From assembly GCA_027319585.1 (NCBI GenBank), contig DAHVMY010000004.1, positions 1,427-65,426 on the forward strand: a stretch of 64,000 bases of DNA. Reading direction: 5' to 3'. Each line of letters begins with the position of its first letter. The first letter of the stretch is position 1. Source of the DNA: Candidatus Dormiibacterota bacterium. GTDB lineage: Bacteria; Chloroflexota; Dormibacteria; Aeolococcales; Bog-877. Below the pieces are notes generated by a model that searched no databases, had not been told where the DNA came from, and saw only the letters and a list, made by a program, of their open reading frames with translations. A program made the translations under genes and the position numbers. Positions 24,951 to 58,685 of the stretch are shown piece by piece.

Positions 24951-25084
24951 TGTGCCTTGAGCCCCCATCTGGCGTTAGTTGCTTGCTTGGGTACCACCCT
25001 TGGACGGTACCGCCTCAGATGGTACTGGCGCGCCACGGGGCCCGGCCAAGAGGCTGGGGGCGGCCCGAAGCCGCCCCAGCCTTG

Positions 25085-25936
25085 TCACCTCTCGATCGGA
25101 GCCCGGACCAGACTGCCCCACTCGGTCCAGGAGCCGTCGTAGTTGCGCACCCTCGGATACCCGAGCAGCTCGGACAGGACGAACCAGGTGTGTGCGGAGC
25201 GCTCCCCGATCCGGCAGTAGGCCACGATCTCGCGGTCTGGGGTGATTCCCTCAGCCGTGTACAGGGCGCGCAGCCGGTCGGCGTCCAGGAAGGTCTCCTG
25301 GTCGGGGTCCACAGCTCGGCTCCAGGGGATGTTCTTGGCTCCCGGGATGTGGCCGCCACGCTGGGCCCCCTCGCCGGGCAGGTTGTCGGGAGCCAACTTC
25401 GCCCCCGAGTACTCCTCCGGGGACCGCACGTCCACCAGGCCGACCTGCGAGCGGCCCAGGAACTCCGAGAGGATCTGGTCGCGGTAGGCGCGGATCTCCT
25501 CGCGCTGACCGGGCACCGGGTAACCCTCTCCGGGCTGCGGGGTAGCGGGCTCGGTAACCAGTGGCCGACCGTCCAACTCCCACTTCCGCCGGCCCCCGTT
25601 CAGAAGCTGCACCAGATCGTGGCCGTAGTACCTGAAGTACCAGTAGGCGTAGGCCGCGAACCAGTTCTTGTTCCCGCCGTAGAGGACGACCCGGGTGTGG
25701 GGGCCGATTCCCAAGCGATCCATCAGCGCCGCGAAGGCCTCGGGGCCGATGAAGTCCCGGGCTACCGGGTCCTGAAGGTCGTTCTTCCAGTGCAGACCTA
25801 CCGAGCCCGGGATGTGTCCCCTCTGATAGGCCTCGGTATCCTCGTCCACGTCGAGAACCCGCAGGTCGGGGTCATGGAGATGCTCCGCCAACCAGGCGGT
25901 GCTGACCAGGGCGTCAGGCTTGGAATATTGAGGCAT
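25085..25936 (-). CDS. Tandem-domain sulfurtransferase (rhodanese; CysA/SseA-like)
   Basis: GHIPG (twice), LVDVRSPEEY, YCRIGERS and NYDGSWTEWG motifs. Confidence 0.94.
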   Translation of the reverse strand: MPQYSKPDALVSTAWLAEHLHDPDLRVLDVDEDTEAYQRGHIPGSVGLHWKNDLQDPVARDFIGPEAFAALMDRLGIGPHTRVVLYGGNKNWFAAYAYWYFRYYGHDLVQLLNGGRRKWELDGRPLVTEPATPQPGEGYPVPGQREEIRAYRDQILSEFLGRSQVGLVDVRSPEEYSGAKLAPDNLPGEGAQRGGHIPGAKNIPWSRAVDPDQETFLDADRLRALYTAEGITPDREIVAYCRIGERSAHTWFVLSELLGYPRVRNYDGSWTEWGSLVRAPIER

Positions 25937-25943
25937 GGATGTG

Positions 25944-26117
25944 CTCCGGTGAAAACGGCTGACGAAGTCCGGACCGGCCGCGGCACGAGTCCGGCGAGCG
26001 AATGGACGGCGGCGGGCCTGCCGGTCGGCTAGGGGCGCTCCAATGCGCCGACCGGCAGCGCGGTACATCGCCGCCGACCCCCAGTCGAGCCGCTATCCAA
26101 TCTGAGGCTCACCGGAA
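25944..26117 (-). promoter_or_regulatory. Structured 5' leader of the sulfurtransferase (candidate cis-regulatory RNA)
   Basis: Perfect 12-bp stem 26018-26029/26047-26058; 8-bp long-range helix 26109-26116/25945-25952 covering the GGAG RBS. Confidence 0.5.
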
Positions 26118-26131
26118 GATGATACCGCGTT

Positions 26132-26162
26132 ACCATACATCCCTTCTAATTTGTATGGTCAA
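26132..26162 (-). promoter_or_regulatory. Promoter with palindromic operator ACCATACA-N12-TGTATGGT
   Basis: TTGACC-N19-TATGGT on the minus strand, overlaid by a perfect 8-bp inverted repeat. Confidence 0.6.
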
Positions 26163-27745
26163 GCGGCCAGGACCTTGGTCACTGCTTCGGCCAGCTGACG
26201 CGACTGCAACTGTCCCAGGATCAAGGACGAGATCTCCCCGTCTGGATCGATGAAGACCGCCACGGGCAAGCCGGGGAGGCCGTACTCCTGAATGATCTGG
26301 CCGCTGCGGTCCAGCAGGCTGGGCAAGCGGATGCCCAGCTGGTGGAGGAAATGCGACGCGGTCGTCGCCGATTGCTGGTCGTTGACGAGCAGGACCCGCA
26401 GGCCGCGGCCCTCGTACTTGCGCGCGGCGGCCGCGACCAGGCCCATGTCGGCCTTGCAATTCGTGCACCAGCTCGCCCAGAAGTCCAGCATCACCGGGTG
26501 CCCGCGCAGCTTGGAGAGGGTGACCGTCGCGCCCGAAGTTGACGGCAGGGTGAAGTTCGGCGCCGGGTGCCCCGGCACTGCCTGCGAGGTCTTGGGGAAG
26601 GCGTTCACGGCGCGCTGCTGCTGGAGCAGCGGCGTGATCGCCTGGTAGACCGTCCGCGGGGTCCAGGAGCCTCCCGTCCGAAGCTCCGTACGTCCCTGCG
26701 AGTCCAGGTAGCGGTAGATCGTGGTCGGAACGGCGGTCGGGCTCAGCGTCGGCTGCGACTGCATCACCGTCACCACGTACCCCTGGGGGTCGATCACCTC
26801 CAGCACCGAGGCGTGGATGAGGTTGAACGGCTCCTTCTTGCCGGTGAACAAATCGGTCGGCGCTGGCCCACCCCACGGCAGCGCCTGCACGGGCGGCACT
26901 CCGAGCTCTGACCAGAAGGAATCCACCGCCTCCGTCGAGCCGGTCAGCAATGGCCAGGGGAGCGAGAAGTAGCGCTGGTACTTGCGCAGGATGGCAGGGG
27001 TGTCGTCGGCCGGATCCTGGGTCGCCTCCAGAATCTGCACCTGGGCCGCCAGCCCATGCTGCACCAGCATCGCGTGGAGCTGCAGCAGGGCAGCTGCGAC
27101 CAAGGGACAGGTCTCCTGACACTCGGTCAGAAAGCTGGCCAGGACCACCACCTTGCCCCGGTACTGGCTGAGCGTGACCGGTTTCCCCTGTTGGTTCACA
27201 AAGGTGGTGGCGGGCAGCCTCTGGATCTGCCTGGACGCCAGGGCGAGTCCGAAGGTGACCTGGCTGTTGCCGCCATATACGGCCACCTTGCCAAGCCCGT
27301 GCGTTCCCAGTTGGAACGTGAACAGCACCGGTGTGGTCTGGCCGCTGGCGATCCGAAAGCCCACGTTGCGCTCCACCTGCCGGCGTCCGCCGGCGGTGGC
27401 CAGGTCGAAGCGGATCTGACTGTAGCTGCCGGGGGCGACGCTGGTCTGCAGGATGGTCGCGGTGTTGGGCGCCAGGTAGGAGCCGGGCAGCCTGAGGTCC
27501 ACCTCAGGAAAATCGAGGGCGCTCCAGCTGCCTCCGGTCGCCGCTCCCTCGAGCTGCACCCCCACGATCGGGACGGACACGGCCGTCGGCGGATGGGGAG
27601 CTGGCTTGGTGACGCTGGCCAGCAGCAGGAGGCGGCCAGGAGAGGGGTTGGAGTGGGTGCTGAGAGCGAACGCGACCGCGGCCACGAGGACGGCGGCGGT
27701 CGCGATCGCGCCCACGACTCGGAGCCGGGGTCCCCTGACCCTCAT
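26159..27745 (-). CDS. Membrane-anchored SCO-family / TlpA-like thioredoxin fusion protein
   Basis: TM anchor, beta-rich domain, SCO domain (TECQETCP, IHAS) and TlpA domain (DFWASWCTNC, GLP). Confidence 0.85.
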   Translation of the reverse strand: MRVRGPRLRVVGAIATAAVLVAAVAFALSTHSNPSPGRLLLLASVTKPAPHPPTAVSVPIVGVQLEGAATGGSWSALDFPEVDLRLPGSYLAPNTATILQTSVAPGSYSQIRFDLATAGGRRQVERNVGFRIASGQTTPVLFTFQLGTHGLGKVAVYGGNSQVTFGLALASRQIQRLPATTFVNQQGKPVTLSQYRGKVVVLASFLTECQETCPLVAAALLQLHAMLVQHGLAAQVQILEATQDPADDTPAILRKYQRYFSLPWPLLTGSTEAVDSFWSELGVPPVQALPWGGPAPTDLFTGKKEPFNLIHASVLEVIDPQGYVVTVMQSQPTLSPTAVPTTIYRYLDSQGRTELRTGGSWTPRTVYQAITPLLQQQRAVNAFPKTSQAVPGHPAPNFTLPSTSGATVTLSKLRGHPVMLDFWASWCTNCKADMGLVAAAARKYEGRGLRVLLVNDQQSATTASHFLHQLGIRLPSLLDRSGQIIQEYGLPGLPVAVFIDPDGEISSLILGQLQSRQLAEAVTKVLAA

Positions 27746-58508: not shown

Positions 58509-58571
58509 ATGCTGACTCGTGAGAGCTCCTTCGCTCTAGTAGGCCTAATTTCAGGAGGGCTGGTCAGCTAA
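58509..58571 (+). CDS. ilv-leu attenuator leader peptide (MLTRESSFALVGLISGGLVS)
   Basis: 20 codons with 4 Leu, 2 Val and 1 Ile, including AT-rich CTA GTA GGC CTA ATT; overlaps the antiterminator. Confidence 0.75.
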   Translation: MLTRESSFALVGLISGGLVS

Positions 58572-58596
58572 AGGCTGCGCATCCGCACTTAGCTGC

Positions 58597-58629
58597 AAGC
58601 CCCCCGGTCACCACCGGGGGGCTTTTTTT
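58597..58629 (+). terminator. Attenuator intrinsic terminator
   Basis: AAGCCCCCCGG-TCACCA-CCGGGGGGCTT followed by a T-run. Confidence 0.92.
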
Positions 58630-58685
58630 GTTTTCCGAACCCATCTCCATCGCTGTTCGACCGAGCAACCACCAGGAGGCCAATC

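Follow-up and report, generated by a model that had tools for sequence, protein, structure and literature searches.

The leader in front of a rhodanese gene in this Dormibacterota genome is probably a cysteine-responsive leader-peptide attenuator in a one-codon variant, judging from a comparison of orthologous upstream regions. Its core would be a leaderless short open reading frame (sORF) that carries an invariant CGA-UGU-A heptamer in frame and is abutted by a covarying hairpin, here called P2. The leader was found on the minus strand of a 64,000-nt stretch of DNA (contig DAHVMY010000004.1), hereafter referred to as the window. A first-pass annotation of the window had described a highly structured leader of about 180 nt that hides the ribosome-binding site (RBS) of a sulfurtransferase, and had read it as a candidate novel riboswitch or translational switch tied to sulfur metabolism. 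The observation was partly confirmed and the interpretation partly supported: a structured, conserved regulatory leader tied to sulfur metabolism was borne out, and a translation-linked switch is plausible in the form of a Cys-codon leader peptide, while the riboswitch form was not supported.

The element sits inside the 222-nt gap between the rhodanese gene and an SCO1/TlpA-like gene that ends at 26159 on the same strand (Table 1). Besides its Pfam Rhodanese match, the encoded protein was matched to PDB entry 1uar (E = 6.5e-106) and to two thiosulfate sulfurtransferases of M. tuberculosis, 3aax and 3hwi (E = 4.8e-100). In sequence, the window rhodanese is closely homologous to CysA2 of M. tuberculosis. 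The leader directly precedes this CysA2-like gene of sulfur metabolism. Of the 43 other genomes of this Dormibacterota family, 35, belonging to six genera, have an orthologue with at least 71% identity, and we collected 36 orthologous upstream regions from the family. A further 80 orthologous loci from more distant organisms were also compared.

Table 1. Features of the rhodanese gene and its leader, in window coordinates
Feature	Coordinates	Strand	Remarks
Two-domain rhodanese (thiosulfate sulfurtransferase, CysA2-like), 283 aa	25085..25936	minus	ATG at 25936; Pfam Rhodanese, E = 5e-38
Shine-Dalgarno (SD) GGAG of the rhodanese gene	25944..25947	minus	read from sequence
P3 hairpin, CCGGAC 25994-25989 / GUCCGG 25974-25969	25969..25994	minus	predicted; in the untranslated spacer
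Predicted enclosing helix, 3' arm CGCCGCC	26008..26014	minus	minimum-energy fold
P2 hairpin, 3' arm	26018..26029	minus	first base is the G of the sORF stop codon
Putative leaderless sORF, 27 codons	26029..26112	minus	GTG 26112-26110, stop TAG 26031-26029; unannotated
P2 hairpin, 5' arm	26047..26058	minus	within the sORF; begins 6 nt past UGU
Heptamer CGA-UGU-A	26064..26070	minus	Arg codon 26070-26068, Cys codon 26067-26065; in frame in the sORF
Predicted enclosing helix, 5' arm GGCGGCG	26069..26075	minus	minimum-energy fold; overlaps the CGA codon
-10 box TATCAT	26119..26124	minus	TAnnAT kept at the matching place in 30/36 orthologous leaders
-35-like hexamer TTAGAA (weak)	26144..26149	minus	read from sequence; some 18-19 nt before TATCAT

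The first-pass annotation had pointed to TATCAT as a possible -10 box, and conservation supports this. In 30 of the 36 leaders, spread over all six genera, a TAnnAT motif precedes an in-frame ATG or GTG by 6-10 nt, mostly 7. The upstream hexamer is weak in the window, and TTGGCG, TTGCCG or TTGCGG was found at the matching -35 place in relatives of the same genus. The frame opened by the start codon encodes the peptide VSLRLDSGSTGGRRRCTALPVGALERP in the window. To avoid bias towards this frame, every combination of a -10 box plus a start codon was counted in any frame, which gave 33 candidates from 32 distinct leaders. Relative to the TGT of the heptamer, 31 of these candidates fell in frame 0; the other two were both in frame 2, and frame 1 had none. 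Start and Cys codon lie 21, 24, 36, 45, 48, 51 or 54 nt apart, seven values that are each a multiple of three. The predicted peptides are 14-28 residues long and share only the dipeptide R-C, a pattern that suggests a regulatory leader peptide rather than a working protein or an aptamer. We infer that the sORF begins at the 5' end of the transcript and is thus predicted to be leaderless.

There were few exceptions. In leader L010 the start codon is out of frame and lies beside a G-run, and in L009 the -10 box has been lost and CUG stands where relatives have a GUG start; both retain CGATGT. Four copies from genus g3 belong to a short-leader paralogue type in which the element is absent. As a separate observation on the promoter region, ATGTATGG occurs in the spacer between the -35 and -10 elements (window 26131-26138, minus strand) and at the same place in L003, L004, L008 and L010. 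This sequence is genus-specific, provides a second ATGTA besides the copy in the sORF, and could be an operator.

A leaderless start would be in keeping with the rest of the genome. When TAnnnT motifs were counted before the candidate starts of open reading frames with high GC3, there were 87 at a distance of 6 nt, 56 at 7 nt, 39 at 8 nt and 37 at 9 nt, whereas the background at other distances was about 15. This peak suggests that roughly 150 genes are leaderless and share the promoter spacing of the sORF. By this measure of promoter spacing, leaderless mRNAs are common in this genome.

CGATGT is invariant in all 29 distinct leaders that were aligned and accounts for the only invariant columns of the alignment; the base that follows is A in at least 90% of cases. 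In nearly all leaders the motif sits 100-170 nt upstream of the rhodanese start. Both codons are rare in confidently coding sequence of this genome: CGA is used for 7% of Arg residues and TGT for 14% of Cys residues. The genome encodes a single tRNA-Cys, with anticodon GCA, so UGU is decoded through G:U wobble. A tRNA-Arg(UCG) cognate for CGA is also present, and slow decoding thus accounts for the choice of UGU better than for the choice of CGA. Each leader has one invariant UGU, placed in the middle of the sORF 6-12 codons before the stop; a second, non-adjacent Cys codon was seen in a few leaders, and a tract of consecutive Cys codons in none.

Two other readings of the heptamer were considered and rejected. 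The AUG within CGAUGUA could in principle form a start-stop element or the start of an N-terminal extension. It is followed mostly by UAG, and by UAC or UAU in genus g1, the genus of the window; the length of the upstream open frame also varies. A T-box was set aside since neither an Rfam match nor a T-box sequence was found. With regard to the tRNA complement in general, aragorn listed 41 tRNAs in the genome that contains the window, among them one typed as SeC and one typed as Pyl, which may be mis-typed.

All helices named in the first-pass annotation were located on the minus strand, both in the sequence and in the minimum-energy fold of a 201-nt stretch, which reproduced every one of them. 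They include a pairing between GAGCC (26110-26106) and GGCUC (26091-26087). To assess which of these helices are conserved, pairs of the named structure were counted across 21 leaders, representing four genera, that had been aligned with MAFFT. P2, the inner 12-bp hairpin, has 11 corresponding pairs in this alignment; 89% of the cells are paired, and both sides have changed in seven of the 11 pairs, for example CUGCCGGUCGG/CCGACCGGCAG, CUGCCGAUCGG/CCGAUCGGCAG and CGCCCGCUGG/CCAGCGGGCG. The covariation score was 0.368 compared to 0.137 in shuffled alignments, with none of 500 shuffles reaching the observed value and slid controls scoring at most 0.09. P2 is the only covarying helix that found support; it starts 6-7 nt past UGU, and the sORF stop codon lies in its top. 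Relatives usually have some predicted helix that encloses P2, in differing registers. RNAalifold returned no consensus from the raw MAFFT alignments of all leaders because leader length varies.

We propose the following sequence of events. Transcription would start about 6-7 nt past TATCAT, at or beside the G of GUG 26112, and 70S ribosomes would translate the 27-codon sORF straight from the 5' end, as the conservation of frame, start and length suggests. CGA-UGU would act as the sensor, with UGU, the rarer Cys codon, read by wobble. By established ribosome geometry, a ribosome with UGU in its A site has its mRNA entry and helicase site at the start of P2, 6-7 nt past that codon. With charged tRNA-Cys scarce, the ribosome would wait at UGU with P2 intact ahead of it and the upstream helix arm buried within it. 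With cysteine plentiful, it would melt P2, terminate at the stop codon in the top of the hairpin and depart, allowing the rod to refold. The output, which is the weakest step of the scheme, would be more CysA2-type rhodanese at low cysteine, by way of a refolding of the spacer that affects translation initiation or mRNA survival.

The closest known system is from mycobacteria. Ms5788A of M. smegmatis is a leaderless polycysteine sORF of 90 nt with nine Cys codons and a 97-nt spacer; it controls Ms5788 and the downstream cysA2 according to cysteine, and ribosomes stalled in its Cys tract prevent the tract from pairing with the SD (bioRxiv 10.1101/834739). Together with Rv0815A and other mycobacterial polycysteine sORFs, which in that study had at least two consecutive Cys codons, it makes up a 'Cys ribulon' (Canestrari et al. 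2020, Mol Microbiol 114:93; bioRxiv 10.1101/834739). Like Ms5788A, the sORF described here is, at the sequence level, a leaderless GUG/AUG frame at the 5' end of the mRNA (84 + 92 nt of sORF and spacer, compared to 90 + 97 nt). Both leaders are very stable, G+C-rich and terminator-free, and both precede a CysA2-type thiosulfate sulfurtransferase gene, which in the Ms5788A operon is the second gene. However, there is one Cys codon here and 2-9 in mycobacteria, which counts against the attenuator reading, and it lies in the middle of the sORF rather than at the 3' end. Further differences are the covarying hairpin right after the invariant CGA-UGU-A, the failure to find any conserved pairing of the Cys region with the SD, peptides that match no NCBIfam family, and a host from another phylum.

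An earlier study (Seliverstov et al. 2005, PMC1262725) predicted Cys leader peptides without terminators in Mycobacterium, Propionibacterium acnes and Bifidobacterium longum. They resemble the present case in being candidate peptides with Cys codons near the stop and in lacking an obvious terminator, and differ in that they have runs of Cys codons and their authors suggested a role for Rho (PMC1262725), whereas a single codon and no Rho were found here. A broader likeness connects the element with classical attenuators, such as E. coli trpL and hisL, the ilvB leader in the window, and leaders in Acidobacteriota. In all of these, the key codons of the sORF match the downstream pathway, and an RNA helix begins right after the sensor codon or codons. 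Unlike the classical cases, no terminator hairpin with a U-tract lies between the sORF and the rhodanese gene, while the ilvB leader of this genome and the Acidobacteriota rhodanese leaders have canonical terminators.

The ilvB attenuator occupies 58509-58633 of the window on the plus strand. Its leader peptide, MLTRESSFALVGLISGGLVS, runs from an ATG at 58509 to a TAA at 58571 and contains the rare codons CTA GTA ... CTA ATT; the terminator at 58600-58633 (plus strand) reads CCCCCCGGTC ACC ACCGGGGGG plus T7. The presence of this canonical terminator indicates that the organism does use terminator-type attenuation.

Among the more distant loci, five Acidobacteriota orthologues (L067, L072, L086, L089 and L098) have polycysteine leader peptides, for example MAIFLKRPAPCCCCRCSVCVSSGAGRLGI, located about 60-300 nt before position 1201 of each locus. 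Folding of L072, L086, L089 and L098 gave hairpins of -15 to -25 kcal/mol followed by U6-7, about 60 nt before the gene; the fold of L067 covered a different U-run and was uninformative with regard to a terminator. An Rfam search of the Acidobacteriota leaders returned no family. Leaders with Cys codons in front of CysA2-type genes, as read from these sequences, thus recur in several phyla. Homology across the phyla is without support, since these leaders are out of reach of the covariance model described next and the peptides belong to no NCBIfam family.

We built a covariance model, R1, from the heptamer plus P2 and searched it against 151 genomes of the order. It matched 23 of 43 genomes of the family under stricter filters, with one copy per matched genome, always immediately upstream of this rhodanese. 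The 107 genomes of the sister family gave one weak match, which lies in coding sequence and was judged spurious. In Acidobacteriota and Chloroflexota leaders, R1 gave no match.

One family member, G001, may show loss of the system. Its leader (L159, at the end of contig G001:C212) has CGA-CGT in place of CGA-TGT and a -10 box reading TGCGAT. The rhodanese itself (G001:C192:59-896), on a contig that begins just past the end of the leader contig, has three internal stops, one TGA and two TAG. From these sequences, sensor codon and gene appear to have decayed together. A different kind of irregularity was noted in the assembly that contains the window, where another contig (G000:C158:4195-5300) has a second rhodanese and leader, with a protein 75% identical to that of the window. 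The sORF of this copy, VRLAPLFPRHLGPAGPRCMRGSAGLGV, is identical to that of G015, a genome of genus g6, so the contig is probably mis-binned and the copy is probably not a paralogue.

The best-surviving alternative, which we nevertheless consider unlikely, is that the sORF is translated without any sensing of cysteine. Translation would then keep the leader open or protect a leaderless mRNA, and CGAUGUA would be an RNA-level signal, such as an endoribonuclease or protein-binding site, that is covered or exposed by ribosomes. Invariance at the synonymous positions of CGA-UGU and at the next A is more than peptide coding needs, and these frozen positions leave room for a possible RNA-level role. 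In the same direction, CGA has its own tRNA, the heptamer is looped in most predicted folds, being the most A/U-rich and usually unpaired spot of a leader with 70% G+C, and the searches for a read-out reported below found none that is specific to cysteine. However, the invariant bases form an exact in-frame codon pair that includes the codon for the amino acid tied to the downstream function. Mycobacterial and Acidobacteriota orthologues have Cys-rich leaders, and the Cys codon was lost in the one genome with a decayed gene. These points argue for the attenuator reading.

A metabolite riboswitch, or a protein-independent structured RNA that hides the RBS and makes leader translation irrelevant, was the interpretation of the first-pass annotation, and we now regard it as quite improbable. 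Its strongest points are that P2 is conserved and covaries and that the leader core folds better than chance. The core at 26080-26005, comprising the enclosing helix and the 12-bp hairpin, had z = -2.57, with one of 200 dinucleotide shuffles as good. In this genome, moreover, an outer 8-bp helix can join the 5' flank to the SD (UCCGGUGA at 26116-26109 with UCACCGGA at 25952-25945, minus strand). A stretch of 201 nt that includes the 5' arm of this helix, and so extends 13 nt upstream of 26112, also beat shuffles (z = -2.48; 2/200 as good). When folding began at the predicted transcription start, 26112, the advantage shrank to z = -1.34, and 17 of the 200 shuffles folded equally well. The excess of folding over chance therefore depends on where the RNA starts.

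The outer helix itself did not hold up among relatives. The best partner of the initiation region varies in place from one relative to the next and may precede the sORF, lie inside it or follow it, so the masking helix is specific to this genome and has no conserved partner position. Comparison of orthologous leaders, a check proposed at the outset, thus supported P2 and not the helix thought to hide the RBS. Its 5' arm also overlaps the conserved -10 box and start, and four of its eight bases precede the point at which transcription is predicted to begin, in line with the earlier caution that a start driven by TATCAT would fall inside this arm.

Sequence conservation of the leader is also unlike that of a riboswitch. 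A novel riboswitch was expected to show a pocket of separated, conserved, unpaired nucleotides framed by covarying helices; instead, the leaders have seven contiguous invariant bases, in frame within a conserved sORF, and a single covarying helix. The frame and start codon are conserved and sORF lengths step by three, which speaks against a riboswitch. When 25000-27000 was scanned against Rfam with cmscan, no family matched the leader even at E values up to 10, be it SAM-I/IV, SAM-II, Moco or any other; the first-pass annotation had likewise recognised no SAM-I/IV consensus.

Even less probable is that the sORF encodes a working micropeptide, for instance a one-cysteine persulfide acceptor for the rhodanese. 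A single invariant Cys beside a sulfurtransferase gene and an open reading frame kept across six genera are what this would predict. However, lengths range from 14 to 28 residues with only R-C conserved, and an NCBIfam scan of six leader peptides found no family. Although the genome is G+C-rich, the synonymous sites of R-C are fixed as rare codons, which points to the RNA or decoding level rather than to the peptide.

We then considered how a ribosome paused at UGU might affect the rhodanese gene. A pattern scan of 25500-26700 found no intrinsic terminator, and no U-tract was seen in the leader by eye. The pattern scan also failed to pick up the bulged terminators of Acidobacteriota, which folding did confirm, and its negative result therefore carries less weight. 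Without such a terminator, a Rho-dependent leader-peptide attenuator of the E. coli tnaC or Salmonella mgtL type would be a candidate, and a Rho-dependent mechanism was once proposed for mycobacterial cys leaders (PMC1262725). The spacers of genus g4 are strongly C-rich and G-poor, as such a mechanism would favour (C/G of 60/29 in one leader and 42/21 in another), but this skew is confined to that genus and absent in most genera. Moreover, none of the 44 family genomes scanned (G000-G059), 17 of which are at least 90% complete, had a Rho protein above the TIGR00767 cut-off, the best score being 46 bits against a cut-off of 509. This negative across the family makes a route through Rho unlikely, and the alternative, the least probable of all, is close to refuted.

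Masking of the RBS, as claimed in the first-pass annotation, was examined with equilibrium folding models in which a ribosome was placed at UGU (with two footprints), at the stop or at the start, or covered the whole 5' half of the sORF, alongside a control block. With or without ribosomes, SD accessibility showed no consistent change across 29 relatives. Mean accessibility, by equilibrium folding only, was 0.45 in the free leader, 0.46 with a stalled ribosome and 0.47 with the 5' half covered. A slight rise, from 0.42 to 0.52, was observed in genus g1 when the 5' half of the sORF was covered. No anti-SD sequence was found at a conserved position among the relatives.

Alternative pairings within the leader were also examined. 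For the 3' arm of P2, no alternative partner was better than shuffles, and no competing antiterminator was found. One lead for the read-out is that GCCGUCG on the 3' side of P2 can pair with a GACGGC located 51-68 nt ahead of the gene. This complementarity recurs in 10 of 15 leaders compared to 1.1 expected by chance, in two genera only. The window has an analogue of this pair, in that GACCGG in the 3' arm of P2 is complementary to CCGGUC in the 3' part of the next hairpin, P3 (25977-25972), as read from the sequence. With no terminator, no Rho and no consistent change at the SD, an output through translation or mRNA stability is, by elimination, the most likely.

A more specific version of the attenuator reading is put forward tentatively, as possible but doubtful. 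Here, CGA-UGU-A plus hairpin would form a one-codon, structure-assisted 'hungry-codon' sensor, in which the hairpin makes a single Cys codon suffice as a pause and the read-out needs neither Rho nor a terminator. The system would represent the Dormibacterota branch of a multi-phylum habit of placing Cys leaders before CysA2-type rhodaneses. If this is true, candidates for the read-out include ribosome queuing on the leaderless 5' end, protection of a cleavage site, and a relay through GCCGUCG/GACGGC, and the read-out would be an attenuation output new to description.

A wider Cys regulon was not detected in this genome, which counts against the attenuator reading. The other leaderless sORFs with Cys codons that were found lie only antisense within a gene or before uvrA, none of them ahead of a sulfur gene, and cysE-cysK has an upstream gap of just 50 nt, leaving no room for a leader.

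We know of no well-studied cultured members of the Dormibacterota, and of nothing established about gene regulation in the phylum. The leader described here indicates that leaderless mRNAs are frequent in this group and that ribosome-based amino-acid sensing very probably occurs there. It extends to another phylum the idea of cysteine leader peptides, which has been demonstrated experimentally only in mycobacteria. What is new is the combination of a single Cys codon, an invariant heptamer and an abutting hairpin, with neither Rho nor a terminator found, in an uncultured phylum. The element offers a test case for the minimum number of sensor codons, and for how a pause can be converted into expression when neither of the two textbook outputs is available. 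It also carries a warning for riboswitch hunting in G+C-rich genomes, where a conserved, covarying hairpin that looks like part of an aptamer, together with a handful of invariant bases, can instead belong to a translated leader peptide.

The same gene has another kind of leader in the sister family f2. Five of its leaders (L019, L021, L023, L025 and L026) are short and have no sORF. They share a conserved extended -10 element and 5' end, TGAGTAnnAT-GGTCGGG(A/T)TT, about 40-70 nt before the rhodanese start. The lack of an sORF in these leaders points to a different regulatory design for the same gene in the sister family.
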